From the NCBI GenBank assembly GCA_944393245.1, contig CALXZM010000004.1, positions 383-64,382 on the forward strand: a DNA stretch of 64,000 nucleotides, written 5' to 3'. Position numbers and translations under genes: made by a program. The notes below the pieces were generated by a model that saw only the letters and a program-made list of their open reading frames with translations, made no database searches and was not told where the DNA came from. Position 1 is the first letter of the stretch; every line of letters starts with the position of its first letter. The DNA is from an uncultured Alphaproteobacteria bacterium (GTDB lineage Bacteria; Pseudomonadota; Alphaproteobacteria; Rs-D84). Positions 2,587 through 50,545 of this stretch are shown here, one piece after another.

Positions 2587-3432
2587 TTATTCTTCGTCCA
2601 GCGCAATGCCGACCAATTTACGTACAATTTCCGCACTTTGCGAATCGCCATTTGGGGCGTATTCCACGAATTCAAAACTGTGTGCGTCGGGGGCAAATGC
2701 GCGTACAAAATATTCGGCAGCATCGGTACTGATTCCGTTTGGTTCTGGTACCAGAACGTCGCGGAATATTTGCGGATCAATCGCATCAAAATCAAATGAT
2801 ACAACGTATGGACGGGTGCCGATTTTGCGCTTTATTTCATCCACCGCGTGCGTATATGCGTCCGTGGTTGATAATTCCGATGCAGAACGTGTGTAAATAT
2901 TTTTGCGACGTACAAAATTTATTTCCGATGGTTCATATGAACGGGCGCCCAGATAAAATACATTTTCCGGGCGCAGGGCGGGGCGACGCAGTTGCAAACC
3001 CAACCAACGTTCATCGCCATCACCCAACAGGGCGCGAACATTGGTGCCATGGGGGGCACCGGATGCCTCTGCCTGGGATGATTCTGGGGTATGAATATCC
3101 AAATGCGCGTCAATGTAAACCAGGCATAAATCTTCGTCCTGAATACGGTTGGCCAATGCGCTGAAATGACCAAAATTGACGGAATGGTCCCCACCAATCA
3201 TTACATGGCGTTCAAACGGTGTGGCGGCCACAATTTTCTTTTGTATCTGAAAGCAATCACCAAACCTGTCGGTGGCGCATAATTCTGCATTATATGGATC
3301 GGCAATAATGGTTGTCCAATCTGCATCAGGATACATTGTCTTTACCGCCGCCGGTGCCAGTGCCGGCCCGCCATTTGTCACAATGTGTGCCGTTGCGCTG
3401 CGACCGTATTCAATGCCCATTATTGTTTTCAT
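2587..3432 (-). CDS. Arginase/agmatinase-family ureohydrolase
   Basis: Motifs GGDHSVNFG, YIDAHLDIHT and VSFDFDAIDP are the binuclear-Mn ureohydrolase signature. Probable start is MKTIMGIEYG. The gene abuts the stop of the upstream secreted-protein gene. Confidence 0.75.
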   Translation of the reverse strand: MKTIMGIEYGRSATAHIVTNGGPALAPAAVKTMYPDADWTTIIADPYNAELCATDRFGDCFQIQKKIVAATPFERHVMIGGDHSVNFGHFSALANRIQDEDLCLVYIDAHLDIHTPESSQAEASGAPHGTNVRALLGDGDERWLGLQLRRPALRPENVFYLGARSYEPSEINFVRRKNIYTRSASELSTTDAYTHAVDEIKRKIGTRPYVVSFDFDAIDPQIFRDVLVPEPNGISTDAAEYFVRAFAPDAHSFEFVEYAPNGDSQSAEIVRKLVGIALDEE

Positions 3433-4535
3433 TTGTATGCCTCCACAACGCTTTCTGCGACGTTTTGTAATTGTTGTAATGAATTTTCGTATGCGGCACA
3501 ATCGCGCGCAATATCAGAACGATATGCGTCCCGCATATTTGTTTGCATATATGCACAGCCAGTTAAATGTTGTACGCAATATTGATGCCCGATGGCAAAT
3601 GCCTGTTGGCCACGGACCTGGCTTTCTGTGCTGGACCAATCAATATTTAATGCGTCATCCAGATTTTTCCACGAATTTTCACCAGTGTATTTACCAATGG
3701 TTTCCATCCAATATTCGTTCATTTCCTCTTCGGTCCAATGGCTTTTGTTTTGCAGGGTTAATATTTCCTTTATCAAACGGTCAATTTCTGGTTTGTATTT
3801 TGCGTCAATTTGGGCCAAGTGCGCACTGCAATAACAACGATTGTATTCTGTATTTTCGCGTTGACAATATGAATTCATACAATCAACATAATCCGCCATG
3901 CAACGCGCCGAAGATACCGCTTCACCCGTAGATGTGTATACCGCAGTGGATGATTGACGTGCCGTTGATACATTGCCGTCTGCACGTGATGTACGCATAA
4001 TACCGGTTTGCATTGCCGTTGTGCCAGTGGATGTGCCGGCACGTGCAATAACGCGTCGGGTGCCAGATGCGCTTTGTGCGGATAATGATGATGTTGCGCG
4101 ACGTGCGGTTGTGCGGCCACCATTTGTCGCGGCACGGGCCGTGGACGTGCCGGTTGATGTCGCGCGTCGTTGTGATACGCCACGTGTTGCCGAACGTGCG
4201 TTTTGGGCCGCTGTATTTGATGTTGGGGTCGTGCGTGCCGATGATGTGATTGCCGCACGGGCGTTGGTGTTTGTGGTTGTGGCGCGCCGCGGAACAACGG
4301 TTCGCGTGGATGAATTTGTTGTGTTTGTACGTGTCAGTACATTTATTTGTGCGTTGGCCTGGGATGGACTGACCCCCGGATTCAGGTTTGTACGCATGGT
4401 GTTGTTCATATAAGGATACAGATTGTTGTACGCATTTGCACTGACGTAATCAGACGGGCGTGTTGTGGCCAATGCCGCGCCAGATGTGATTGCCAGTGTC
4501 GTACAGATTACAAAAAGTATAAATTTCCTTGCCAT
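3429..4535 (-). CDS. Family B secreted protein: signal peptide, basic T/S/A/R-rich low-complexity region, C-terminal Cys-motif domain
   Basis: MARKFILFVICTTLAITSGAALA is a Sec signal. About 170 aa are low-complexity (TTARRATSS, ARTTPTSNTA...). The module CMADYVDCMNSYCQRENTEYNRCYCS aligns to CKSAYFTCMDQFCQLKNDDYRRCSCS in the 913-aa protein at 36851-39592. Confidence 0.6.
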   Translation of the reverse strand: MARKFILFVICTTLAITSGAALATTRPSDYVSANAYNNLYPYMNNTMRTNLNPGVSPSQANAQINVLTRTNTTNSSTRTVVPRRATTTNTNARAAITSSARTTPTSNTAAQNARSATRGVSQRRATSTGTSTARAATNGGRTTARRATSSLSAQSASGTRRVIARAGTSTGTTAMQTGIMRTSRADGNVSTARQSSTAVYTSTGEAVSSARCMADYVDCMNSYCQRENTEYNRCYCSAHLAQIDAKYKPEIDRLIKEILTLQNKSHWTEEEMNEYWMETIGKYTGENSWKNLDDALNIDWSSTESQVRGQQAFAIGHQYCVQHLTGCAYMQTNMRDAYRSDIARDCAAYENSLQQLQNVAESVVEAYK

Positions 4536-6211: not shown

Positions 6212-6787
6212 ATGAATATCTTACCAGATTATATAAAGGGTGAACGGGTGCAATTGCGCCGTTCTTTATCGTCGCATGCCAGTGCTGTGTGGCAATATGT
6301 CAAAGATAATCAAGATTTCTTTATGAAATGGCAGAATAGTTGTTGGAAAAGTGAAAAAGAAATTTTTGATTATTTTACCGAATTAAACAGTGATAAAAAC
6401 CGCAAAGATTTTTATTATACTATTTTTCTTGGTGACAGAATCATCGGTACTGTAAATTGTTGGGATGTCAGTACATGGCGAATGGCGTGCCAGTTAGGGT
6501 ACGAGATAAATCCAGAATATGCCGAACATGGTTATATGACAGAAGCGGTCAAACTTTTGGTAACAGAACTTATTAGAGCTGGGTTCGTTCGTATAAAAAT
6601 AGAATGTGCAACAGAAAATATTCCAAGTATGAAGTTGGCAGAAAAAGTGGGTTTTGTTTGTGAGGGCATAATGAAGAAAGATGTATTTATGAAATCGGTA
6701 AATCATTTCTGTGATACAGCGGTTTTTGCAATTGTTAATGAAGATAATGCAATAAAATTGGAAAAAAACAGGTCAAGTATTGTGTAA
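6212..6787 (+). CDS. GNAT-family N-acetyltransferase (RimJ/RimL-like)
   Basis: Size and motif layout fit the RimL/RimJ class: ...VNCWDVSTWRMACQLGYEINPEYAEHGYMTEAV... The gene is AT-rich. Confidence 0.7.
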   Translation: MNILPDYIKGERVQLRRSLSSHASAVWQYVKDNQDFFMKWQNSCWKSEKEIFDYFTELNSDKNRKDFYYTIFLGDRIIGTVNCWDVSTWRMACQLGYEINPEYAEHGYMTEAVKLLVTELIRAGFVRIKIECATENIPSMKLAEKVGFVCEGIMKKDVFMKSVNHFCDTAVFAIVNEDNAIKLEKNRSSIV

Positions 6788-6827
6788 AAATATTCTTTGA
6801 CAAGGTTGTATTAAATAAAATAACGAG

Positions 6828-8033
6828 ATGAAAATGTCTAATGCTGGTGCGTTGCTGATATTAAAATTATCTAGATTTTGTCTGTATTTTATGCCTTTGA
6901 TACCTGTTATTACATTGGTGTATTTGGGCAAGGGTGTTTCGTTGGCGGATTTCTTTTTAATTCAGGGAATTTTCAGAATAGCGGCGTTTTTGTTTGAAAT
7001 ACCCAGTGGTTATTTGGCCGACGTTTTTTCCAGAAAGAAAATTATGGTTTTGGCCGCACTTTTACAATTTTTGGGAATGCTTTTATTGATATGGGCCCAG
7101 GGATTTTGGGCTGTTGTGGTTTGTGAGTCACTTATGGGAATGGCCAGCGCACTACTTTCTGGTACTGGTGAAGCCTATGTGTATGACCTGTTAAAGCGAG
7201 ACGGTAAGGAAAATCAATATGTGAAAGAAAACGGTTCAATAAAGTCATTTGCGCAAGTGGGGACGTTTATTTCCATGGTCATAGGCGGGGTATTGTTGGC
7301 ACGGGGCGAGAATGTATTGTTGGGTGTAGAGGCGTTTGTAGTATTCTTTGGATTTTTGTTGATGCTGTTTTTGCCGGAAATCAAAGAAGTCAGGCGTAAA
7401 GTTGTACCAGAGGCAAGCCCACTGAAAGATTGTCTTGGTATAGTAAAGATGTCTGTGAAACATCCAGAAATAAAGTGGTTGATGTTGTTTCCCGCGATAT
7501 ATTCAACATTTACGATAGTATTATTATGGTTGTTGCAGCCGGCGATGGAGTTGGCTTTGGTTCCTGTTGCATTGTTTGGGGTGTTTTTTGCCATCAATCA
7601 GGGAAGCAGGGTATTGTTTTCCAAATTTGCACATAAAATTCTGAATGCTTTGGGTGCCAAAAAGTTATTGTTGGGTTGTGTTGGGGCGTTGGTGCTGGGG
7701 TTTGCTGCGGTGCTGTTGACGATAAATTCAAATGGGTTTATGATGCCACTGGTGTATGCAATATGTGGAATGGTTGCGATTATACCCGCTGTTCAGACGA
7801 TGTGTGTGTTGGTCTTTAATGATTATATACATCACAGAATTCAATCAAACGAGCGCGGCACAGTATTAAGTGTAAGTTCAATGTTTAATATGGGAATATC
7901 TGGTGTGGTGTTGATGGCGGCAAAGCCGTTGTTAAGTAATTTTGGTGTGGCGGCAACAACAATAATATTTTTAGTATTGGTGGTGTTTATTCTTATACCA
8001 CTGAACAAAGTATTTAAGATAAAAAATTTATAG
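6828..8033 (+). CDS. MFS transporter
   Basis: About 12 predicted TM helices and the MFS loop motif FSRKKIM after TM2. 401 aa. Confidence 0.7.
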   Translation: MKMSNAGALLILKLSRFCLYFMPLIPVITLVYLGKGVSLADFFLIQGIFRIAAFLFEIPSGYLADVFSRKKIMVLAALLQFLGMLLLIWAQGFWAVVVCESLMGMASALLSGTGEAYVYDLLKRDGKENQYVKENGSIKSFAQVGTFISMVIGGVLLARGENVLLGVEAFVVFFGFLLMLFLPEIKEVRRKVVPEASPLKDCLGIVKMSVKHPEIKWLMLFPAIYSTFTIVLLWLLQPAMELALVPVALFGVFFAINQGSRVLFSKFAHKILNALGAKKLLLGCVGALVLGFAAVLLTINSNGFMMPLVYAICGMVAIIPAVQTMCVLVFNDYIHHRIQSNERGTVLSVSSMFNMGISGVVLMAAKPLLSNFGVAATTIIFLVLVVFILIPLNKVFKIKNL

Positions 8034-24133: not shown

Positions 24134-25261
24134 TTAGAATATATATTTTAAATTAAACCCGCCATTCCAACCGGCACGTCCACCGTCACGACGGTTTAAA
24201 TTCAGTGCAATGTTAAAGCGGTCGATCGATTTTTCAATACTTATACCATATTCGGCATAATCACGTGTGTCCAGGTCATCGTATTGAACACCGTCAACAA
24301 TAACGTCGCCACCGTGTCCCATCATAAATGCGTATTTAAAATTAATTGAACCAAACCAACCGCGACCGATATGCTTGATTGCGCGAATTTCAGGCGCGAT
24401 TTCAAATGAATTAAAGTTTTGGTTTGCAACGGCATTTCCGGACATTGACATATAATTTGCGCCACCAATCCATGTGTATCCTGCGTAAACGCCCGGTTGG
24501 ATTGTAAACGAATCATCCAATGCGATATTGTATGTCATGTTTATTGCGGCGCCCGCCCACATATTTGCGAATTCATCATTGCCGTATTTATGTTCGGCGT
24601 TGTTATACAGTGTTCCAAAATTAGCAGCCAATGAAATATTAAAACGTTGGATGTTGTATCCTGTGTACAGGCCAACATAACCGCCACGTTCGTCCAGGTT
24701 TATAAATTCATTTTCCTGGGTTCCGCCAACATATCCACCGAAAATACCCCATTCGGATATTCCGATGCCACGTTGCGCTTCCCCGCCGGCCAGACCAAAC
24801 GATATTAAATCCATGTCTGTATTTAATTCATCGTATCCCTTGAACTTTATGTCGTCCGCAGCATGTTGCCAATTTAACCAAATGCTGTTTATTACAGGGC
24901 GGGCGTCTGAATATTCAGTGGTTTCCGGTGCGTCACCACCATTACGACCCGACTGTGATGCTTTCTGGGCGTTGCCGTCATCGCCATATTCGCCATATAA
25001 TCTGGGCCAACCATACATGGGGGTTGTGCCGTACATGTATTTTGATTCTGGATCTTGCCTTACCAGGCGGGCGCGTCCACCCAGGGCCGCGGCGGCGGTA
25101 CCTTCAAACGTTTGCATGGCATTGGTCATGATAGAATGTTGCAATGCGGTAATATTATTTGTTGTAAATGTGTTTGCATAAATATGCGGATTAACCGCAG
25201 CAAAACCGCCGTTTGTGGACAATATAAATATACTAAGCGCAAATAGTGATGTTTTTTTCAT
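24134..25261 (-). CDS. Outer-membrane beta-barrel protein (porin-like), hypothetical
   Basis: Signal peptide MKKTSLFALSIFILSTNGGFAAV, aromatic-rich alternating strands, C-terminal ...LKYIF. Confidence 0.55.
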   Translation of the reverse strand: MKKTSLFALSIFILSTNGGFAAVNPHIYANTFTTNNITALQHSIMTNAMQTFEGTAAAALGGRARLVRQDPESKYMYGTTPMYGWPRLYGEYGDDGNAQKASQSGRNGGDAPETTEYSDARPVINSIWLNWQHAADDIKFKGYDELNTDMDLISFGLAGGEAQRGIGISEWGIFGGYVGGTQENEFINLDERGGYVGLYTGYNIQRFNISLAANFGTLYNNAEHKYGNDEFANMWAGAAINMTYNIALDDSFTIQPGVYAGYTWIGGANYMSMSGNAVANQNFNSFEIAPEIRAIKHIGRGWFGSINFKYAFMMGHGGDVIVDGVQYDDLDTRDYAEYGISIEKSIDRFNIALNLNRRDGGRAGWNGGFNLKYIF

Positions 25262-33752: not shown

Positions 33753-34760
33753 ATGTTTGAAGGAACAATGATTGTAAAAAGTGCGGCCAGCGCATTTAAT
33801 AATGCTGCGTTGGTGGCACCTGCTTTTTTGTGGGTGGCATTGTTGGCGTTGCCGCTGTTTGCGCTGGTGTATTTTTGTGGTAATTCTGTTATGGAAAAAG
33901 TTGGCTGGAATTCACGAAATATTATGGCGCGGACGGCATTGTGGACGGTTGTTTTATCGCTGATATGGGTGGTATTGTTTGGCGGAAATTACGGCGTGTT
34001 GCGTGATAATGCAACCATATTACCGTTTGTGATTGCCACAATTGTATTCGTTTCAAGTGTTTTTGTCGGTTCGTATCATAATTCTTTGAATTTACCGAAA
34101 TTTCGTTGCGCGTCACGTGGAATAAAAATCGGAATAATTTGTGCGTGGATTTTTGGTTTGGCGATAATAGGATTGTCTGATTTGCATGCGTGGTGGGGGC
34201 CATTGTTGCAAATTGGGGCATTTTTGTTTGGTTTGGGCGTTGGGCGTTTGGCGCGCGCAGAAATGCGTCCAATTGCCGGCGCCGTGTTGGTTATGGTGGC
34301 AATTACGGTTGCCGTGTTGATGCAACCCGAATTTTTCCGTTTTGGGCAATTGGGGGCGTTAACGCCAGTGCATCAGGTGTTCTTGATTTTAATGGCCATG
34401 GCATTGGCGGCCGTTGTGGCACTGCGTAATATAAAACCGCGTGGGATTATTCGTCACAGTGCGTATGTAAAGTTAAAATGGTTGGCGCGGTTTATTTCTG
34501 TGCTGTGTATGGCATTGTTTGTGTTAACGGAATCTGTGCCAGTTTATTTGGGTATGATGTTAATGTTTTTCATAACATTTGCGATGTCTGTGGCGCATGC
34601 GGCGCAATTGCCTGAACGTGCGGATGAACGCATGTTTGCAATTACGTTGGGGATGTTCGGAACGATAACGATGATGCCGGCTGTTACGGCGTTGGGAATT
34701 TTGTATTGGATTGTTCTGCCACGTACAAAGGCATGGCAGTCAATAGGATTCCTGTTATAA
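33753..34760 (+). CDS. Hypothetical polytopic inner-membrane protein
   Basis: 335 aa with about 9-10 hydrophobic helices. No recognisable family. Confidence 0.5.
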   Translation: MFEGTMIVKSAASAFNNAALVAPAFLWVALLALPLFALVYFCGNSVMEKVGWNSRNIMARTALWTVVLSLIWVVLFGGNYGVLRDNATILPFVIATIVFVSSVFVGSYHNSLNLPKFRCASRGIKIGIICAWIFGLAIIGLSDLHAWWGPLLQIGAFLFGLGVGRLARAEMRPIAGAVLVMVAITVAVLMQPEFFRFGQLGALTPVHQVFLILMAMALAAVVALRNIKPRGIIRHSAYVKLKWLARFISVLCMALFVLTESVPVYLGMMLMFFITFAMSVAHAAQLPERADERMFAITLGMFGTITMMPAVTALGILYWIVLPRTKAWQSIGFLL

Positions 34761-36850: not shown

Positions 36851-39592
36851 TTATCTGATGGCATCGGGCAAATATTCTAATTCTTCGCCATTTTCTGATA
36901 CACAAATGCCATCTTTTTCACCGCCATTTAATGGGCAAACCTGGTTGGCGGAACTGGGGGTCATTATGCACCAATCTGATGCGGCTGGGACGTTGGTGGC
37001 ACTGACATCCATCATTTCGTGCAGTGTTATGCTGCAACTGGCATCGTTTGCGTGTTTCGTTGTCCCAGATGTTTGATTTTTTACCGTTACTGGCAGACCA
37101 GCGATACATTTCGGGCTTTGGCCCCATTTACTGCGGCGTCCGCCATTTTCCCAGCACAGGCATGCCCCCCATGATTGGGTGTCCACATTCAAATCGTAAT
37201 CACGTGGGCACATGTTTTCATTTGCACCAATGGCATATATTTTAACTAAATTTGGGTATATTGATGTACCACCATATTCCAATGAGTTTTCAAAATCGGC
37301 AGAACACAAAGAATCTTCGACATAAACATCTTTGATAAATTGTAGTTCTATAAACCTGCCCTGTAAATTCATGCATTGTGTTGTCAAAGAGTCAACGATT
37401 TGATTATATATTTCGGTTGCAACACCCGTTGGTCGTGGTGTGTGGTGGGCCAACAAACGTTGTGGACCCGCCGCCACGGATGTATCATATGGTGTTACAC
37501 CGTCTGTTGGATTTGCGTCCAGTAAACCGTATTTTCTGTGCTTGCCAGGTGCGCCATTTTTATTGTATTCGCCATCGTAATCAAAATAGAATACACTTTC
37601 AGTATTGTATTTACCCTTGGACGCGTTTATAACGTCAAATCCACCAAATACCTTTTCCAACATTTCCGGTGCACTGCATGATTCAATGTCTTTTAATTGC
37701 TGGGCGCATTTTGATACGGGCTTGTCTGTTATTTGTTTGCCGTTTTCGTCATATTCATACAATGTAAACCATTCCAGTGCTTCGCCGGTGCGGAATAAAC
37801 CGCTGTACGGATAATAGAAGTTTTCATAATTACTGCCACCAAAACTGTCAAAGCATTGTTTTGCAACTGCACGACATGCGGTCAAAGTATCCGTTTCTTC
37901 GCGATTGTTGATATAGTCCGTAACGATGTTTTGGCCGTCCGTTTGTTCATAGAACATCATGTTACATGAATTGATATAGTCGCGACATATTTCGGTGGTT
38001 AGTGTGATTTTGTTTGGTTGTAAAACCGTGGTATCGTCCCCAGTTAATTCAGCCATTGCCGCAGTCAGTGCCGTATCACCGTTCATATAGCATGCTGATA
38101 CAAAGTCAAAGCAACCCTGCTTGATTTCGGCAACTTTGGATTGTTGGGCGTAATATATGTCCAACATTGCTTTGTCTAAGTATTCCGCCCAAACGTCATC
38201 CGCGATTTCTGTGCATTTATCCAGTGCGGGTTCCGCAAATTTTTTCACCCTGTTTTCAAAATTATTTACAAATGCACGATTGGCGGTAACCTTGGATAAC
38301 TTTTGATTGGCGGCATCAATACCATCAGCAAATCGTAACAGATTTCCCAATTCATAGAAGTTTTCCACCCCGGCAATCGGTGCACCCGTCGATACATCAA
38401 TAAATTCGCCATTGTCCAGGCATTTATGGTAATTGGCACCGCATACCTCTTCACTTAAAATGGCCTGTTCCACATTGGCCAGACATGTGGCCATGTCGGA
38501 TGAATTGTGATTTTGTCTGTTTTCTACGCGTGCCAAATCCAACATAGCACTGCTTTCGCGGACCGCGGATTTCATCTGTTTTTGTTGATTTTCGATTGCA
38601 GATTCAACGGCGTTACAATCCTGTTCTATGGCCATCAGGTATGCCGTGATTGCGCGCTGTAACTGGGCGTCTGTGCAATCAGCACGGACCGCCGCGCGAC
38701 ATTGTGGGTATACGGCGTTATATAAATTTTGGCCGTTGTATGATGCGATTATTTGCCCCGCGTCGGCGGTGCCAAATGCGTTTACAGTATCAAATGACAG
38801 GGTTATACTGTTTAATCCTGAATACTTGCCACCAACAGTTGCATCGTCGCCACGAATGGAATTCATAATTGCCCGTAATAATTGTTTTGATGCAGATGTA
38901 TCGGCGGTTAGTGCATTTTCACCCTCGGTCGCGGTTTTCATGGCGGCTGCCTGTTCCGCGGTCATGCCGACAACGTCCAGATTTTCTGTAAATACCGTTA
39001 ATTGGTCGGTGGCATCCTGCATAACATCACGAATTTCCGCCAGGTCAAACACGCGATTGCTGCACGAACAACGGCGATAATCGTCATTTTTTAATTGGCA
39101 AAATTGATCCATGCATGTGAAATATGCACTTTTACATTGTTCGTATTCGGCCCCAGTGCGTGTGCCAGACACTATGTCGGATACCCCATCAATGGCCGCG
39201 CGTGAAACAACCGGTGTGGCACTGCGTGCAGATTGCACCGTTGTTGTGGCCGCCCGGGTTGTTGCGTCACGTGATATAACGCCAGTTGAATCGCCGCGTA
39301 CAGTTGCAGATGTATTTTGTGTTTGGCGTGGGGTGCGCGCCGTGCGGGCGGTTGTTGTGTCTGGACGGGTTGGTGCTGATACCGTGGTGCCAGTGCGTGA
39401 AACAACTGGGGCGGCGGTACGTGTTGTTACCGCACGGGCGGCAACGGCCTTGGTCGATGCAGTGCGTGATGTGGCGGATTGTGTTGCCGATGATGGGGTA
39501 CCACGATTGGTTACGTTTTCATCACGAACGGCGGCGTCGGCCGTGCCCAAGCAGATTGCAAAAATCCCAATAAAATGCAGAATTTTTTTCAT
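36851..39592 (-). CDS. Family B large secreted Cys-rich protein (913 aa). Signal peptide, about 140 aa of T/S/A/R-rich low complexity, then a large Cys-containing domain.
   Basis: MKKILHFIGIFAICLGTADA signal; TARTARTPRQTQNTSATVRGDSTGVISRDATTRAATTT...; EYEQCKSAYFTCMDQFCQLKNDDYRRCSCS is paralogous to the protein at 3429-4535. Confidence 0.6.
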   Translation of the reverse strand: MKKILHFIGIFAICLGTADAAVRDENVTNRGTPSSATQSATSRTASTKAVAARAVTTRTAAPVVSRTGTTVSAPTRPDTTTARTARTPRQTQNTSATVRGDSTGVISRDATTRAATTTVQSARSATPVVSRAAIDGVSDIVSGTRTGAEYEQCKSAYFTCMDQFCQLKNDDYRRCSCSNRVFDLAEIRDVMQDATDQLTVFTENLDVVGMTAEQAAAMKTATEGENALTADTSASKQLLRAIMNSIRGDDATVGGKYSGLNSITLSFDTVNAFGTADAGQIIASYNGQNLYNAVYPQCRAAVRADCTDAQLQRAITAYLMAIEQDCNAVESAIENQQKQMKSAVRESSAMLDLARVENRQNHNSSDMATCLANVEQAILSEEVCGANYHKCLDNGEFIDVSTGAPIAGVENFYELGNLLRFADGIDAANQKLSKVTANRAFVNNFENRVKKFAEPALDKCTEIADDVWAEYLDKAMLDIYYAQQSKVAEIKQGCFDFVSACYMNGDTALTAAMAELTGDDTTVLQPNKITLTTEICRDYINSCNMMFYEQTDGQNIVTDYINNREETDTLTACRAVAKQCFDSFGGSNYENFYYPYSGLFRTGEALEWFTLYEYDENGKQITDKPVSKCAQQLKDIESCSAPEMLEKVFGGFDVINASKGKYNTESVFYFDYDGEYNKNGAPGKHRKYGLLDANPTDGVTPYDTSVAAGPQRLLAHHTPRPTGVATEIYNQIVDSLTTQCMNLQGRFIELQFIKDVYVEDSLCSADFENSLEYGGTSIYPNLVKIYAIGANENMCPRDYDLNVDTQSWGACLCWENGGRRSKWGQSPKCIAGLPVTVKNQTSGTTKHANDASCSITLHEMMDVSATNVPAASDWCIMTPSSANQVCPLNGGEKDGICVSENGEELEYLPDAIR

Positions 39593-42968: not shown

Positions 42969-44717
42969 TTATTCGGCGTGCTGGGTGTCGCGCGTTGTCC
43001 ACGGTTCGTCGTTCATCACCAAATAATATAATTCTGCGCTGTTCGTTCCAGGGTTGCGTATAATCGGACGCACAACATAAATATCAACGTTACAGGCGCG
43101 ATTGTTTTCGTCCGTTTGAATACTATCCAGGTTGAAATGGAATTTGTTGGCAAAATCCATTGCCTGTAAAAACGCGGCGTCATCATCAGCGGCGGTATAC
43201 GCATCGCCCGCCCACATCAGCCACATGCCGTGATTTATAACGTTTTCTTGGCCCTGTAAATCGTCTGCGGATAATAATGTTAATGGTTTGAATTCTATTC
43301 CACTGGTGAAATCACCGGTACTGGTTTCTGTCCAATCATACATTCCGCCAATGAAATTTAATGCGCCGTATATAAATCCACCCGTTCTTTCCAGGCGTGC
43401 CAATGCACCCACGTTTGCCAGTGTTGATTGAAACAACCAATCACGTACACGGCCTGATAATGTGCTGCTGCGGGCGATTTTTGCAGCGGCGCGAATTTGT
43501 TTGCCGCCACTGTTGGCCGCACGTATTGCACGCCATGCGCGGGCAATAATGTTGCCACGTTGGGCCGGACGCAGACTGCGTAATGCGCGACGGTATTGAT
43601 TTAGTGAAGAAAATGTTTGGCTGGCCTGGCGATATCGGCGAACATTATCGTCGGTTGTTTCCAATGTACGTATTGCATTGGCGTAATTTTCAACCTCGGC
43701 CGCTTTACGCGCATATCCGGCCGCATCAGTTGCGCGATCAATTGCCCTTAATTCTGATGTGGCACGTGCGTATTGTTGGGTCAGACGAATGTAATCGCGC
43801 ACAGAATCTGTTTGGCGCAGCGCACGCATTGTTGATGTTAGTCCGTGCAGTGCACGTGATGCACGTGCGGCCTTGGTTGCGCCCAGAACAGCAGTCCCCC
43901 CACCCATCGTCGCAACCGTTATAATCACATCCAATCCAATTTCCAGATATGAAATCCATTGTAAATTGGCATCGCCCGCCACATAGTAATCATTTGTGTC
44001 ATCTTCCAGATTTACTGTTTCGCGCATTGCGCGGTTTATCATGGTGTTATCATTGGTCAGTGCTGATTTGCCGGTGCACATATTGCCACGTGGAAACAAT
44101 GTATCAATGTTATCATTTATATATTGCATTGATATAGTGTTGTTTTTATCGGGGCCAACAAATGCGTCCAATGTGCCAGATTCCACAACCATAATGGCAT
44201 ACCATGCAGGATCGGTGTTCGTCCAAATGGCATTGTCGTTTGGGTCGCCAACACGTGGATTTGGATCGGTGGACGGTAAATCGCGTTTATCCCCCAGGGT
44301 TATACGCTGTTTCAGAATTTTTGGTTGTGTTTCATAATTTACCGTTATTGTGCGGCCACCTGGGAAAGTATATGTAATTGGTAAAAATTTGATTGTTTCA
44401 TCATCCGCCAAATTTTCAAATTCGGGGCATGCCAATACAGCGCGCAATACATCAGGATTCTGAAAAGTTTGGTATATCCATTGGCGAATTGTTGTTTCAT
44501 CATCTGTTTCAGAAACAGATGATTGGGTTTCATACAGTGCGTTTGCAAATATGGCCGTTGCACATTTTGTGTCATCTGGACTGGTTTTCAATAGTTCAGA
44601 TGTTGGGATAAAATCAGGTGTGTTTGGCAAATCATTTGGTGGGGGCACTAAATCCGCACAAAACGCCACACGCGTGGTGCACAGTGTGAATAATAAAGAT
44701 ACAGCAATTTTATGCAT
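42969..44717 (-). CDS. Large secreted hypothetical protein (about 580 aa) in the prepilin-peptidase operon
   Basis: Probable start MHKIAVSLLFTLCTTRVAFCA (Sec signal). It follows the stop of the Family A gene by 5 nt. No recognised domain. Confidence 0.55.
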   Translation of the reverse strand: MHKIAVSLLFTLCTTRVAFCADLVPPPNDLPNTPDFIPTSELLKTSPDDTKCATAIFANALYETQSSVSETDDETTIRQWIYQTFQNPDVLRAVLACPEFENLADDETIKFLPITYTFPGGRTITVNYETQPKILKQRITLGDKRDLPSTDPNPRVGDPNDNAIWTNTDPAWYAIMVVESGTLDAFVGPDKNNTISMQYINDNIDTLFPRGNMCTGKSALTNDNTMINRAMRETVNLEDDTNDYYVAGDANLQWISYLEIGLDVIITVATMGGGTAVLGATKAARASRALHGLTSTMRALRQTDSVRDYIRLTQQYARATSELRAIDRATDAAGYARKAAEVENYANAIRTLETTDDNVRRYRQASQTFSSLNQYRRALRSLRPAQRGNIIARAWRAIRAANSGGKQIRAAAKIARSSTLSGRVRDWLFQSTLANVGALARLERTGGFIYGALNFIGGMYDWTETSTGDFTSGIEFKPLTLLSADDLQGQENVINHGMWLMWAGDAYTAADDDAAFLQAMDFANKFHFNLDSIQTDENNRACNVDIYVVRPIIRNPGTNSAELYYLVMNDEPWTTRDTQHAE

Positions 44718-44722
44718 GTTTT

Positions 44723-45931
44723 TTAGTTGCCCAACATATAACCACACCTGTTAACAAGGTTTTGACGCAGGTTTTGTAAACGATTAATCAGTTCATCGTA
44801 TTGATTTGTAGTTGGATTTTCAGGCGTTGTGTACGGGTTTACCGGTTGATTTGTTGATGCGACGACACAGGTGTTACCACTGCGTGTATAACCAGATATA
44901 CAACCCCAATTCCAACAATAATTGGTGGTATCAGGTATGTATTCAATATATGCATCTATGCCCTTGGCGGGTTCGCCAGATTCTGTACAATATCGTGCGA
45001 CACATTCAGGTTGCCAAAAATCGTCTTTCCATAATCCGTTCCACCACCCCGCGGCGGTGTCTGACCAAGTGGATTCGTCTTTCTTTTTCCCCTGTAAACA
45101 TTGACGGACACCCGGTGCGGCGATAACATTAGTGCCGTTTTGTTCCACGCCACAGAACATATAATCACCAATATTTGCCTGGCGTTCGCCTTTATTAAAT
45201 ACCGTATTACAACATGTGAAAGCACCAGTCACAGGATCGTATAAGCAATCTGTTTCTGAAAATACTTGTGAACCAGATATTAAACCGCCAATAATTGCAC
45301 CAGCGGCCGCCCCGATACCAGTGCCGATTACTGGGAATATACTGCCAACCGATGCACCCGCGATTGCACCACTGGCCGCACCACCAGCCACATTCCAACC
45401 GCTGTGTTCGCCCTGGCCGGCGGTTGATGCATATATACCGGCCGCGCCCCCGGCAATGCCCAATGCGGCCCCCACTTTTGCGCCGCGTGACATACTGGAC
45501 CAGTTTGTTCGGGGCCTAGGCGCGGTAGTTGACGGTGCCGACGTTGTTGGCCCAGACGGAGCTGGGGCAGGACCTGGTGTCGGTGTCGACGTTGTTGGTC
45601 CAGACGGAGCTGGGGCGGGACCTGGTGTCGGTGTTGACGTTGTTGGTCCAGACGGAGCTGGGGCAGGACCTGGTGTCGGTGTCGACGTTGTTGTCCCAGA
45701 TGGAGTTGGGGCAGGACCTGGTGTCGGTGCCGATGGTGTTGGTGCAGGTACGGGAACCGCATTTGGCATACCTGTAACGTTTATTAAACGTCCTGTATTT
45801 GCGTCACGCCAACGGTGATCAGAAATGCTCTGTACTGGGATTACGCCAGGGTCATTCCACATTAATGCGTTTGCACCAGAATTAACAAACATCAATGACA
45901 GTATGAAAAAAAATATAACTGTTTTACGCAT
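44723..45931 (-). CDS. Family A secreted protein: signal peptide, 16-aa Pro/Thr-rich tandem repeats, glycine-zipper segment, FSETDC...CCN / CWNWGC module
   Basis: MRKTVIFFFILSLMFVNSGANA; (TPTPGPAPAPSGPTTS)x about 4; GAALGIAGGAAGIYAS...IGTGIGAAAGAIIGGLISGSQVFSETDCLYDPVTGAFTCCN. Paralogous to 1-2156. Confidence 0.6.
   Translation of the reverse strand: MRKTVIFFFILSLMFVNSGANALMWNDPGVIPVQSISDHRWRDANTGRLINVTGMPNAVPVPAPTPSAPTPGPAPTPSGTTTSTPTPGPAPAPSGPTTSTPTPGPAPAPSGPTTSTPTPGPAPAPSGPTTSAPSTTAPRPRTNWSSMSRGAKVGAALGIAGGAAGIYASTAGQGEHSGWNVAGGAASGAIAGASVGSIFPVIGTGIGAAAGAIIGGLISGSQVFSETDCLYDPVTGAFTCCNTVFNKGERQANIGDYMFCGVEQNGTNVIAAPGVRQCLQGKKKDESTWSDTAAGWWNGLWKDDFWQPECVARYCTESGEPAKGIDAYIEYIPDTTNYCWNWGCISGYTRSGNTCVVASTNQPVNPYTTPENPTTNQYDELINRLQNLRQNLVNRCGYMLGN
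45520..45740. repeat. Four tandem 48-bp coding repeats (the Pro/Thr/Gly-rich unit) inside the Family A gene
   Basis: gacgttgttggtccagacggagctggggcaggacctggtgtcggtgtc repeated with single-base variants. Confidence 0.7.
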
Positions 45932-45935
45932 GTGC

Positions 45936-46832
45936 TTAATAAATCCCTTTTAGACTTTTTATACATTCATTAAATGGTGTGCCGGCATTTTTGCAGTTTT
46001 GCAATGTTGCTATATCCGCATTTAGCGTTGCCAGTTGCGCTGTTGCGTTATTGCAATAAGAATCGTAACGTGCACGGTATTTTTCTTCGCTTTCAATATT
46101 TAATGGTTCGTATGCGGATTTATCCTTGTACGGGGCGTAACCGGCCGCGTCATTTTGCATGCGTTCGGTAAAAGATAAATCAGCGGCCGTTGTTGGAAAT
46201 GCCGCGCGTGCCAATTGGGTGTCGCCCCCGCCGGTGTTGGCAGATTGCAGATTTTGTAATTCCTGTTGCCGTTCCATTATATCACCCATCCAGTCGGGTG
46301 TTTGTGGGGTATATGGGTTGGGAAATTCATAATCGGGTTGATTTAACTTTGTATTCGGGGTTGTCGCAGCCGGAAAAGATACCGTTTTGCCCGTGGGGGC
46401 CGCCACTGCGTTTTGTGAAACATATTTGCTGAATTCTGTGTCAATGTATCCCGCGCATGGCGTTACATAGTTATGGTTTGGTAAACTGGCCAATTGTACA
46501 GTCAACGTTGGACGTGCGTCATCAACGTCAATCCCGACACAGTTATTGCGCGATGCACAAAATGATGCCACCAATGCCCCAACAACAGCGGTACAATCCG
46601 ATGTGTCGACATCCGTGCCCTGGACATAAACGGGTACCGGCATACGTTGGTTATACGGCATGTCAGGATTCCAAAATGGGTTTGATGAATAATTTTGCAC
46701 GTTTTGTATTTGACCATATTGTGAAAATGGTGTGGTGTATGTCGGAAATGTTGTCGCGATTGCCGGCAATGTGGCAATGCTGAAAAGTGTGCCAATTATG
46801 GAAAATATATATAATTTCATTTCTCTGCCCAT
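45936..46832 (-). CDS. Secreted hypothetical protein (about 300 aa)
   Basis: Hydrophobic signal-like N-terminus MKLYIFSIIGTLFSIATLPAIA. AGGGA Shine-Dalgarno before Met6. Contains QQELQNLQS, a heptad also present in the 676-aa Family A protein. Confidence 0.5.
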   Translation of the reverse strand: MGREMKLYIFSIIGTLFSIATLPAIATTFPTYTTPFSQYGQIQNVQNYSSNPFWNPDMPYNQRMPVPVYVQGTDVDTSDCTAVVGALVASFCASRNNCVGIDVDDARPTLTVQLASLPNHNYVTPCAGYIDTEFSKYVSQNAVAAPTGKTVSFPAATTPNTKLNQPDYEFPNPYTPQTPDWMGDIMERQQELQNLQSANTGGGDTQLARAAFPTTAADLSFTERMQNDAAGYAPYKDKSAYEPLNIESEEKYRARYDSYCNNATAQLATLNADIATLQNCKNAGTPFNECIKSLKGIY

Positions 46833-46850
46833 TATTCCCTGTTTCATGTA

Positions 46851-48004: not shown

Positions 48005-50545
48005 ATGGATAAATCGGTTTTAACATTCAGGGAATATAATATAGCAGGCAATGTATTGCGTGCTTATTATGATGCCGATGATAAATTGGTTTTTGTCCTG
48101 GACAGTACGTTGGACGACAGAAAACCGAATGCGCTGTTGGTAATAAATCCGGTTGGTGACAGAAAGTGGGATGATATTTTGGCCAATGATTATGGGGTTG
48201 ATTTAGAAACTGTTCGGCCGAAAAAAAATAACAAATATCAAAAACTGGATATAGAATATGCCGGGTTGGCGGAATATGATAATTTAATTAATGCGTATGA
48301 AACCGGTGGTGATTTGGCGGCTGCATTGGCTGAATTGGCCGGTTTCCGCGAAGAATCTGTACGCCGTGCCGCAACTGAACGTTTGGCGGTGGCAAATGAT
48401 AATGCTGAAAAAGCGCGCGAAACAATTATCAAAACACGCGAATCTATTTCTGAATTACAAACCAAGTTGCGCCAATTACGGGCAAAACTGGCCCAGCAAA
48501 AAAAGCAGGTCGGGCGCGAACCAACAAAAAAATCTGCGTCCAAGATTTTGCGCACTGATGCACAGGTTGATGCCACAAATGAAAAATTGCGTCGCGCAAA
48601 AAAACGTTTGAATAATGCACAGCGTCGTTTGATTGCTGCGGACCAGGATGCTGAAATCGCACGTGGAATTTTGGAACGAAAAAATACTGTGGCGGATGTG
48701 GAAATGAAACACGGTGTTGCGCGGCCACGTCCAAGTGCGGTGGAACCGATTGTTACAACCACTTATAATGTATCTTATGATGATGTGACAGATAATGACA
48801 ATGGTGATGATGATAATGGGCGTGATGATGAATTTCCTGATTCTGGAATTCATTTTTCCACACAAATAGATATGTCACCCAATAATAATATTGTGGCCGC
48901 AGCAGACGCCAACGACGATAACAATGTTGCACGCATGCCGGACACAGAATTTGACAGTGACGATAATTTGGCAGATGTACAAACACAAATCGCAGATGAA
49001 CCAAAGGCGGAAACAATGGCTGATGAACCAGTGAAAAACGAAGAAGAAGTAAAACCGTTGTTTGACAATGATCCAGAAATATTGGACGAAGAAATCGCGT
49101 TTAAGCCCATTAATTTTGGGGTTTCCAGTCCTGTGCCGGATCAGACAGCAGAATCACAACCCAGTGCAGATGTTTATGAAACGGTTGTTGATGAAAAACC
49201 ATTGGCATTTACGCCACCGGTTGATGATGATAAAATCGTTCGGGATTCACCAATAAATGTCAGACCCGTAACGGATGAATTTGGGGAAAATACGGGCAAT
49301 ACAAATTCAGGGCCGGTGTTGGACACTATCAAATCGGTTGAAATGCCCGTGGATAATAATGATTCAAATGTACAATTGGATTCTGAATTAATGTCTGGTG
49401 TTGCGCCGATTCGGCCAGACGTGGAATCTGAACCTGTGCCGGTGCGGCCGGAACCTGTGGCACGGCCAATGGTAAATGAAAACAATATGGGAACGCCTGC
49501 CCCGGCCCCGGTTGCGCCAGATGTGAATGCGGGTGCGCGTCCTGTGCCACCGGCTGCAACGTTGTCAAATGCGGCCGCTGTTGCGCGCCCAATGTCGCCG
49601 ATTACTGGAAATGCGGCACCGACAAATCCGGCACCGCGCAAACCCACGTGGATATACTATGTTATGCTGATTTTATTAATCGGTTTATCAATATTTACGT
49701 TGTGGCTGTATCAGAAAAATACAAATCAGAATGTGCCTGATTTGACGGCAACGGTACCAACTGTACAGGAATCAGAACAAACGTCGCCAGATGTGGATTC
49801 TGATATAGACAGTCCATTTATCGCAGAAATGGATACAAGCGTATCTGATGAAAAAACGCAGATAACGGTTGATGCGCCTGTTGCAGAACCGGTGGAACCA
49901 GTTACGGTTACAGAACCGGTTGTTGAACCAGAACCAGTGCCAGAACCAGAACCTGTTGAAACCGTGTCTGAACCAGTGGTGACGGAACCAGAACCAGTGG
50001 CGGATATAGAAATCACATCAATTGATATGGCACCGACTGAACCGGTTGCTGAACCGGAACCTGTCATAGAAACAGAAGAAGAAATATTGGCCAGCAAGCC
50101 CGCGTATAATGTTTCACAAAACGAAAATATGTTTGTTGCCAGTCCTGAATATGATACTGAAACACTGCGGCAAAACGCCATGCAGGCCGTTGATACGGTT
50201 GGGCCGTCTGTTGTAACATCCAATGATGTTGCAAATGCAAATGTTAATGTGCCAACAACGCCATCAACAAATGTAACGTCTGGGGTGTCAATGAATGCAG
50301 CCCCAGTCGTACTGCAAAATCAGCAGGCGCCAGTGGCCACGTCAAATACAGTCGAAGAATATGTGCCCCAGGCCGTAACGTCGGTTGTATGGGAAGATAC
50401 CGTTCAGAATTTGCCAACGTGTCCAGATGGAACCGCGCCTGATGTTAATGGGTGTTGTGCTGGTGAAGTTTATACCGATATGGGGGAAATGGGATTTAAT
50501 TGTTGTCCAGAGACCGGTGGTGATTGTTTCCCGCCGTTGTTATAA
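48005..50545 (+). CDS. Large acidic single-TM protein with Glu/Pro/Val-rich repeats and a Cys-rich C-terminus (hypothetical)
   Basis: 846 aa. N-terminal coiled coil (ETIIKTRESISELQTKLRQLRAKLAQQKKQ), TM at WIYYVMLILLIGLSIFTLWLY, EPVEPVTVTEPVVEPEPVPEPEPVETV repeats, C-terminal CPDGTAPDVNGCCAGEVYTDMGEMGFNCCPETGGDC. Confidence 0.5.
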   Translation: MDKSVLTFREYNIAGNVLRAYYDADDKLVFVLDSTLDDRKPNALLVINPVGDRKWDDILANDYGVDLETVRPKKNNKYQKLDIEYAGLAEYDNLINAYETGGDLAAALAELAGFREESVRRAATERLAVANDNAEKARETIIKTRESISELQTKLRQLRAKLAQQKKQVGREPTKKSASKILRTDAQVDATNEKLRRAKKRLNNAQRRLIAADQDAEIARGILERKNTVADVEMKHGVARPRPSAVEPIVTTTYNVSYDDVTDNDNGDDDNGRDDEFPDSGIHFSTQIDMSPNNNIVAAADANDDNNVARMPDTEFDSDDNLADVQTQIADEPKAETMADEPVKNEEEVKPLFDNDPEILDEEIAFKPINFGVSSPVPDQTAESQPSADVYETVVDEKPLAFTPPVDDDKIVRDSPINVRPVTDEFGENTGNTNSGPVLDTIKSVEMPVDNNDSNVQLDSELMSGVAPIRPDVESEPVPVRPEPVARPMVNENNMGTPAPAPVAPDVNAGARPVPPAATLSNAAAVARPMSPITGNAAPTNPAPRKPTWIYYVMLILLIGLSIFTLWLYQKNTNQNVPDLTATVPTVQESEQTSPDVDSDIDSPFIAEMDTSVSDEKTQITVDAPVAEPVEPVTVTEPVVEPEPVPEPEPVETVSEPVVTEPEPVADIEITSIDMAPTEPVAEPEPVIETEEEILASKPAYNVSQNENMFVASPEYDTETLRQNAMQAVDTVGPSVVTSNDVANANVNVPTTPSTNVTSGVSMNAAPVVLQNQQAPVATSNTVEEYVPQAVTSVVWEDTVQNLPTCPDGTAPDVNGCCAGEVYTDMGEMGFNCCPETGGDCFPPLL

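Follow-up and report, generated by a model that had tools for sequence, protein, structure and literature searches.

A lineage-specific family of exported, cysteine-rich proteins with a basic N-terminal tail and a predicted helical 8-Cys domain in uncultured gut Alphaproteobacteria

The stretch of DNA considered here (the window in the following) comprises 64,000 nucleotides of contig CALXZM010000004.1 from an uncultured alphaproteobacterium of the Rs-D84 lineage, and its minus strand carries two genes, encoding proteins of 913 and 368 amino acids (aa), which are the subject of this report. Rs-D84 bacteria possess genomes of less than 1 Mb, from which respiration, most biosynthesis and the standard transporters are missing; they probably depend on other cells, and many of their hypothetical membrane proteins were proposed to serve cell-cell interaction. 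Rs-D84 (Candidatus Enterousia) is widespread in the guts of humans, livestock, birds and termites and was never cultured (PMC12306168). A preceding sequence-only reading of the window took the two proteins for paralogous members of an undescribed family with a common architecture. Both open reading frames (ORFs) were found at the positions given for them, and the family assignment stood: searches revealed no Pfam-A family for the 913-aa protein at E<=1 and sub-threshold noise only for the 368-aa protein, no NCBIfam family for either, 0 matches among PHROGs and, by profile search, 0 matches among PDB sequences, and every member with a source name is listed as "hypothetical protein". It is strongly supported that the two represent a genuine family of exported proteins, which is inherited vertically, is specific to the lineage and carries a new domain; exported Cys-rich envelope or surface proteins are a known category, and what is new is the protein family.

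Family members are built from up to four parts, namely a signal peptide, a tail of 100-250 residues, an 8-Cys helical domain and, in the long class, an additional helical stalk with a beta-rich distal domain. The 913-aa protein belongs to the long and the 368-aa protein to the short class, and the following features were assigned to them, disorder and secondary structure being predicted (gene coordinates include the stop codon).

36851..39592, minus strand: long-class gene, 913 aa
39533..39592, minus strand: signal peptide, residues 1-20, MKKILHFIGIFAICLGTADA, with predicted signal peptidase I (SPase I) cleavage before AVRDEN
39143..39532, minus strand: tail, residues 21-150, disordered, T/A/R/S/V-rich, net charge +9
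39059..39136, minus strand: Cys module, residues 153-178, CKSAYFTCMDQFCQLKNDDYRRCSCS, matched by regular expression
38543..39142, minus strand: 8-Cys helical domain, residues 151-350, with C153, 160, 165, 175, 177, 298, 306 and 326
37793..38542, minus strand: second helical 8-Cys region, residues 351-600, with very long helices (helix 461-517) and C-x6-C pairs
36854..37792, minus strand: C-terminal region, residues 601-913, variable, beta-rich and Cys-containing, the Cys being partly conserved
3429..4535, minus strand: short-class gene, 368 aa
4467..4535, minus strand: signal peptide, residues 1-23, MARKFILFVICTTLAITSGAALA, followed by TTRP, assigned from sequence features
3906..4466, minus strand: tail, residues 24-210, disordered, T/A/S/R/N-rich, net charge +19
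4377..4451, minus strand: aromatic peptide, D29-P53, DYVSANAYNNLYPYMNNTMRTNLNP, present in most of the 38 short-class representatives
3825..3902, minus strand: Cys module, residues 212-237, CMADYVDCMNSYCQRENTEYNRCYCS, matched by regular expression
3432..3920, minus strand: 8-Cys helical domain, residues 206-368, with C212, 219, 224, 234, 236, 320, 327 and 346

The unit uniting both classes centres on a Cys module, which was identified as C-x3-Y-x2-C-M-x2-[FY]-C-Q-x5-Y-x-R-C-x-C-S and which six-frame translation of the window yields exactly twice, at 39059-39136 and 3825-3902. The sequence-only reading was hence right in recognising a shared Cys motif, but the spacing by which it described the motif (C..Y..CM and CQ......Y) matches nothing, and its quoted peptides were attributed to the wrong proteins, since ARTTPTSNTAAQNARSATRG and CMADYVDCMNSYCQRENTEYNRCYCS derive from the 368-aa and the other two from the 913-aa protein. 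When compared by BLASTP, the window pair gives E 7e-10. Shallow profiles of 12 versus 12 sequences aligned over 47 columns only (96.7%), a result superseded by deep hhalign profiles (53 long-class and 38 short-class sequences), with which the whole 163-aa C-domain of the short class matches residues ~151-350 of the long class (98.7%, E 2.5e-16). The proposal of a family had been made dependent on the alignment reaching beyond the 26 residues of the motif, and the homology was found to cover 157 columns, i.e., the entire 8-Cys domain. None of the module's five Cys varies among 53 diverse long-class sequences, and the 38 short-class representatives retain all 8 Cys without exception; Cys conservation within the domain amounts to 91-100%, and the first 16 long-class Cys are invariant or nearly so among 53 representatives of 25-50% identity. 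Based on the end-to-end hhalign result and this Cys invariance, the unit common to the short and long classes is, as judged from sequence, an 8-Cys helical domain of ~160-200 residues. No internal duplication of this domain was detectable within the long protein. Along its helices, the 913-aa protein possesses five C-x6-C pairs and one C-x9-C, and both window proteins are almost certainly disulfide-bonded.

Export of the two proteins is indicated by their N-termini, where a Sec signal had already been proposed and was confirmed from sequence features: in each case a basic n-region is followed by a hydrophobic core of 10 residues with a Kyte-Doolittle mean of 2.6-2.75, and an SPase I site of the AxA type was seen. 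Signal-like N-termini are present in 71 of 90 members, the remaining ones being N-terminally truncated gene calls, and just 4 of the 90 possess a lipobox-like site; the lipobox [LVI][ASTVI][GAS]C typical of Lpp/Lpo-type tethers is absent in both window proteins, whose sites are those of SPase I. The signal peptide and the conserved even number of Cys provide good support, from sequence, for both proteins crossing the inner membrane, and it is in this part only that the earlier designation as secreted proteins is established.

Following the signal peptide, both proteins continue with a basic T/S/A/R-rich region of low complexity, a type of region which within the 64-kb window occurs in these two ORFs only. 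Its character was thus recognised properly, but its length had been given as 140-170 aa and was measured as ~130 and 186 aa. Within the 913-aa protein (residues 22-150) the tail consists of T 23%, A 16%, R 12% and S 12%, within the 368-aa protein (residues 25-210) of T 20%, A 16%, S 14%, R 12% and N 9%, and the remainders after the tails are acidic, with net charges of -45 (913-aa protein, 30 Cys) and -9 (368-aa protein, 8 Cys). AlphaFold2 (AF2) predicts both regions to be unstructured, as had been expected: for residues 10-143 of the 913-aa protein the predicted local distance difference test (pLDDT) stays <50, and for residues 1-208 of the 368-aa protein no structure is predicted. What recurs in the tails is a short peptide motif. 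The 913-aa tail contains repeated xVSR[AS]A motifs (PVVSRTGT, GVISRDAT, PVVSRAAI) and the 368-aa tail motifs of the RRV[VI]xR and ARSAT type; across the family, the long-class motif [TN]-V-S-R-[AS]-A-T (VSRA 24 times versus 1.4 in shuffles, SRAA 37 times versus 3.3) and the short-class motif R-R-V-V-[AP]-R-S-A-T (RRVV 40 times versus 0.2) share the core [AS]-R-[SA]-A-T. Right after the signal, each class carries a conserved peptide of its own, which is A-[AG]-[VI]-R in the long class (found directly after the signal in 107 of 173 members) and a ~25-residue aromatic motif in the short class, in which YPY and PYM are enriched versus shuffles. Tail composition, charge and several Arg positions are conserved despite fast sequence divergence. 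Considering the motif enrichment and the class-specific conserved peptides at the mature N-terminus, the tail is, at the sequence level, more than a spacer.

The DNA encoding the tails had been described as a degenerate tandem repeat, which did not hold true, as Tandem Repeats Finder (minimum score 30) finds none in either region and a repeat search returned scattered 2-3-copy matches of 12-36 nucleotides only. Within species-level clusters (>=90% identity) full-length members are all exactly 913 or 368 aa long, and polymorphism within species is low, the 913-aa protein being nearly invariant. Fixed lengths and low polymorphism imply that the tail region is not a contingency locus, and a tandem-repeat surface protein was accordingly rejected, with 0 Tandem Repeats Finder rows and no length variation at >=90% identity.

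For the 913-aa protein, AF2 modelling based on a 67-sequence alignment resulted in a mean pLDDT of 77 and a predicted template modelling score of 0.58. From ~residue 290 on pLDDT values are mostly 85-98 (85-95 for residues 351-600, where the Cys are conserved at 100%), and only 33-49 was reached at residues ~223-277, i.e., inside the 8-Cys domain. Residues 145-600 are modelled as all helical, including very long helices at 308-362 and 461-517, and residues 600-913 as beta-rich, with strands at pLDDT >90. The helical, Cys-containing regions that had been expected to follow the module were consequently found in the model, but the last ~300 residues of the long protein are beta-rich and variable. 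The 368-aa protein (12 sequences) yielded an all-helical domain at pLDDT 43, a confidence too low for a fold search. Foldseek searches with the 913-aa model gave nothing significant, neither against the PDB, with colicin Ia (1cii) as best match (E 1.9, TM 0.05-0.07), nor against the predicted viral structures of BFVD (best E 0.11); the modelled fold is thus probably new with respect to PDB and BFVD, which the search covered.

The extent of the family was assessed by exhaustively searching the module profile against 1.84 billion representative proteins (clusters at 50% identity), which returned 378 clusters at E<=1e-3, of which 70 reached E<=1e-10. With few exceptions, the 149 best representatives combine the signal peptide, a basic T/S/A/R/N tail (+5 to +26), the module and an acidic Cys-rich remainder, and in 140 of these 149 the module, relaxed to C-x3-[YF]-x2-C-[ML]-x2-[FY]-C...[YF]-x-R-C-x-C-S, is located ~100-250 residues from the N-terminus. 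Short-class members comprise ~280-430 aa and exactly 8 Cys from the module onward, long-class members ~700-1260 aa (up to 1759 aa) and 22-106 Cys. More than 1020 homologs were found for the 913-aa and 49 for the 368-aa protein; where a source is named, they derive from metagenome-assembled genomes of Alphaproteobacteria or "Rickettsiales", and a word-indexed search with a diverse profile returned 34 proteins only, with no informative names. Two of the proteins hit, P0219 (1084 aa, 76 Cys) and P0220 (743 aa), contain 18 and 7 stretches matching the module profile; they show neither the regular expression of the module nor the family architecture and are probably unrelated Cys-repeat proteins caught through composition. 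Known Pfam domains are fused to the 55 diverse members sporadically only (Big_2, Ephrin_rec_like, DnaA), whereby Big_2 or ephrin-receptor-like Cys repeats locate to the C-terminal extension of rare relatives and the DnaA fusion is probably a miscalled gene.

In both classes, the start of many public entries has been placed at a Met within the Cys motif (C-M-ADY or C-M-DQFC), giving rise to "proteins" of ~150 aa and ~770 aa without signal peptide and tail; examples include P0122, P0125, P0157, P0069, P0369 and P0371. At the related loci L081 and L082, stop-to-stop ORFs of 342-352 codons stand against 270-292 codons called. The truncated starts look like a systematic gene-calling error, of which the odd composition of the tail is probably the cause.

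A genome scan identified the long-class gene in 175 species-level genomes, and the locus counts given here refer to 80 loci kept, which except for two bins labelled Muribaculaceae belong to Candidatus Enterousia and related uncultured Alphaproteobacteria of the gut; closed chromosomes with the gene measure 0.72 and 0.96 Mb. In the related loci examined, one module-bearing ORF per locus was found. At 65 of the 80 loci the 913-aa gene is convergent with lpxB-lpxA, lpxB lying immediately downstream, and an M23 peptidase gene is a further neighbour in the window. An operon link to lpxB was discarded, as the genes are convergent and the synteny is absent in divergent lineages. Median identities over 58 syntenic genomes amount to 81% for the 8-Cys domain (151-350), 77% for the mid helical region (351-600), 46% for the C-terminal third (601-913) and 36% for the tail (22-150), compared with 92% for LpxA, 80% for the M23 peptidase, 69% for LpxB and 65% for a methyltransferase, meaning that the helical core of the 913-aa protein is more conserved than LpxB. 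The same gradient runs along the protein within a species. A divergent lineage of ~1 Mb genome size (loci L085 and L086) carries the homolog next to genes for a Pom porin, PBP1, alpha-2-macroglobulin and other Cys-rich secreted proteins.

Two further observations concern this divergent lineage. The long-class gene stands there in divergent orientation beside the gene of the Pom-family porin (PF17251), and secreted Cys-rich proteins with 28 and 35 Cys are encoded nearby; in L086 a small lipoprotein-like gene is additionally found as a tandem array of three copies. The respective coordinates are 6305-7861 and 11644-12630 in L085, and 6352-7860 and 13561-14772 in L086.

As for the short class, the 368-aa gene ends in an ATGA junction (window 3429-3432), its stop codon sharing bases with the ATG of an arginase-family gene; L081 has this junction too (6876-6879), which suggests translational coupling. 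The arginase-family gene was considered as a functional partner of the short class and rejected, being absent from L082 and hence not a family property; an arginase-family neighbour is curious beside a protein with a 12%-arginine tail, the pairing however is not family-wide. Promoter and terminator scans gave nothing above shuffled expectation. A phage, plasmid or defence origin was likewise rejected: besides PHROGs, tblastn against plasmids and phages gave no match, and PADLOC reported only Csx1 (14.9 bits, E 0.0025), which is noise. At the C-terminus of the 913-aa protein a clade-specific LPDAI / LP[ED]G[LI] motif was noted, which is found in 83 of 120 close relatives and in 0 of 53 diverse members; sorting of the sortase or exosortase type was dismissed, as LP[ED]G[LI] falls into the final 12 residues, with a few residues at most and no hydrophobic segment after it.

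Taking these properties together, the reading we favour, at somewhat less than even chances, is that of an envelope-anchored surface protein whose cationic tail holds an acidic, disulfide-stapled body. It assumes that initially the protein is exported via Sec and that the conserved Cys then form intramolecular disulfides, which would staple the helices into a rigid, protease-resistant and strongly acidic body. Next, the cationic tail would bind a polyanionic envelope component, i.e., the phosphates of lipopolysaccharide (LPS) or peptidoglycan, and thereby hold the body on the envelope. The conserved helical part would provide structure or support assembly, and in the long protein the C-terminal domain, which evolves fast, would point outward and make contact with the environment or with a partner cell. 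For its part, the short protein might represent a base-only paralog, which may join the same assembly via the common 8-Cys domain. A core structural role is suggested by the lpxB-lpxA synteny at 65 of 80 loci together with the high identity of the 8-Cys and mid regions, and the setting supports the surface reading further, with Pom porin, lipoprotein-like and Cys-rich secreted neighbours and with Big_2 or ephrin-like extensions in rare relatives. Several points weigh against it. As lpxB is convergent, the synteny does not imply co-expression, and in other lineages the context of the long-class gene differs, in one being unrelated. No outer-membrane translocation route is recognisable, neither a beta-barrel nor a lipobox or sorting signal, and surface exposure is therefore an assumption; localisation, binding partner of the tail and oligomerisation are what we infer, and most of the data would fit a location in the periplasm alone equally well. 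Moreover, an Arg-rich disordered tail would be very protease-sensitive if exposed in the gut, and since fold searches covered PDB and BFVD only, a relative of the fold may exist in AFDB.

Parts of these objections were reasoned to argue for a purely periplasmic scaffold or tether, with the tail in peptidoglycan and the body on the inner face of the outer membrane or on a porin, which would set the spacing or rigidity of the envelope, much as is assumed for the bulk of chlamydial OmcB. We consider this possible, though on balance unlikely: it would account for a Sec signal that comes with neither outer-membrane translocation signal nor beta-barrel or lipobox, it would presumably keep the trypsin-sensitive Arg-rich tail protected, and it agrees with the very high conservation of the helical core as well as with the neighbours, which are lpxA/lpxB and the M23 peptidase in the window and the Pom porin and PBP1 in L085 and L086. 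The lpxB adjacency, however, is convergent and not operonic, a body with ~15 disulfides would be unusual for a periplasmic protein as far as is generally known, and a variable C-terminal third (46% versus 77-81%) with occasional Big_2 or ephrin-like modules is more typical of exposed regions. A different role of the tail, namely that of a glycosylated mucin-like spacer or of a cleaved propeptide neutralising the acidic body during folding, in place of an electrostatic anchor, appears improbable. With Thr and Ser making up 34-35% of a disordered exported segment and one distant member scoring weakly against Pfam Mucin, glycosylation is conceivable, and a tail opposite in charge to the body would be in keeping with an intramolecular chaperone or propeptide, for which the Arg-rich motifs might provide protease sites; conservation, however, concerns the positive charge and the Arg motif with its spacing rather than Ser/Thr alone, and within the contexts seen no glycosyltransferase or O-oligosaccharyltransferase is linked to the gene, the genome being very small. 

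Colicins (e.g., colicin Ia) resemble the long class in combining a disordered N-region, very long helices and a distinct C-terminal domain, and the idea of a released toxin, bacteriocin or effector, whose N-terminus would serve translocation, its helices receptor binding and its variable C-terminal domain the activity, draws on this order of parts and on colicin Ia being the top, yet non-significant, Foldseek match. We regard it as very unlikely. The 1cii match, with E 1.9 and TM values down to 0.05, is noise, and a colicin-type structure was rejected on the range obtained (TM 0.05-0.07); colicins possess neither Sec signals nor disulfides, as opposed to the Sec signals and many predicted disulfides of the window proteins. 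In addition, the gene is a single-copy, chromosomal, syntenic core gene (65 of 80 loci) with lpxB immediately downstream and no adjacent immunity-like gene as partner, it has no plasmid or phage match, the short class is devoid of the C-terminal domain and the protein is almost invariant within species. That two unrelated low-complexity ORFs merely happen to show a similar Cys pattern, or were produced by annotation, has next to no probability left: low complexity does inflate pairwise scores, and ORFs on the opposite strand overlap both gene regions, but 157 structured columns align at E 2.5e-16, 378 clusters show the same architecture, the Cys are invariant and the AF2 model is confident. 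Cluster count, profile homology and Cys invariance refute this explanation.

Comparison with known systems puts the chlamydial OmcB closest, as an analogue in layout only. OmcB consists of a signal peptide, a variable basic hydrophilic N-terminal domain, which harbours an XBBXBX heparin-binding motif, and a conserved Cys-rich remainder thought to give the envelope its rigidity, the protein as a whole being basic (PMC2229832). The window family shares with it the order of the parts and the pattern of selection, with a variable basic N-region followed by a conserved Cys-rich rest, and the occurrence in a reduced-genome bacterium dependent on a partner or host. It differs in that no sequence relationship exists, the basic region is 3-5 times longer, Thr/Ser/Ala-rich and equipped with another motif, and the body is acidic and largely helical. 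All membership features tested failed: neither window protein matches a Pfam or NCBIfam family, which speaks against membership in the curated OmcB family, and XBBXBX is lacking from both window proteins, from all 38 short-class members and from all but 4 of 53 long-class members. Going beyond the surface reading, a new anchoring and attachment apparatus built from the two proteins may be envisaged, in which a cationic tail with the Arg motif would hold a stapled scaffold of new fold on the cell and the variable distal domain of the long subunit would mediate attachment to a partner or host; we hold this to be a rather doubtful proposition, and its relation to the chlamydial cysteine-rich outer membrane complex would be one of analogy only.

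In diderm envelopes, a flexible segment or an anchor positions a folded domain in LpoA/LpoB, TolA/TonB and LPS-anchored S-layer proteins (RsaA), which are Cys-poor and anchored by lipid, transmembrane helix or folded LPS-binding domain. The concept of a long flexible segment placing or anchoring a folded domain is common to them and the window family, which differs in being polycationic and disulfide-rich, possesses neither lipobox nor transmembrane segment and shows no sequence or fold match to them. With twin-Cx9C (CHCH) hairpins, as generally known, the window family has in common that Cys lie on one face of a helix, and from this spacing (C-x6-C, C-x9-C) the analogy suggests helices zipped by paired disulfides; here, however, the domain is much larger, spacing and number of Cys differ and no homology was detected.

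Counting the two family members, the window encodes an unusually large number of exported proteins without annotation, which include three consecutive minus-strand genes at 42969-46847 (303, 402 and 592 aa), each with a signal-like N-terminus; the 402- and 592-aa genes, which the Pfam scan covered, gave no Pfam match. At 3-2156 (plus strand) a Cys-rich ORF open at the left edge encodes 676 aa from the first start codon (22 Cys, net charge -40, no Pfam match, hydrophobic Gly/Ala-rich stretches at either end). In 24 of 80 loci, tblastn matched parts of it at a distance of 3-6 kb upstream of the homolog of the 913-aa protein, and it may represent a second envelope-protein family of the lineage. 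An 846-aa protein without Pfam match (48005-50545, plus strand) has a net charge of -82 and a Cys-rich tail ending CPDGTAPDVNGCCAGEVYTDMGEMGFNCCPETGGDCFPPLL. Immediately upstream of lpxA, 33753-34760 (plus strand) encodes a 335-aa basic membrane protein without Pfam match, which, as this position is kept in 62 of 80 loci, may be an unrecognised component of lipid A or envelope biogenesis. The 375-aa ORF at 24134-25261 (minus strand), with a signal peptide, no Cys and FNLKYIF at its C-terminus, looks by sequence like an outer-membrane beta-barrel protein. Finally, GC skew is strongly positive (0.2-0.39) over most of the first ~36 kb, with a few 2-kb bins at 0.04-0.16, and approaches zero or slightly negative values beyond ~52 kb; over the same span gene orientation changes from mostly plus at the left to mostly minus at the right. 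Both the drop in skew and the change in orientation would fit a replication terminus near 50-54 kb.

For the organism and the family, these findings have several consequences. The 378-cluster domain family is a possible addition to Pfam, and the analysis exposes what looks like a systematic annotation error in public gene calls and yields antigens and tags for localisation or enrichment. In a bacterium of <1 Mb genome size that probably relies on other cells, family members may be regarded as candidates for reinforcing the envelope and/or for attachment. The 913-aa gene takes up ~0.3% of such a genome, and its core is better conserved than LpxB, with no relative in curated families or in PDB/BFVD; considering genome share, conservation and the absence of such a sequence or fold relative, the 913-aa protein ranks among the better candidates for an envelope or attachment component that defines the lineage.

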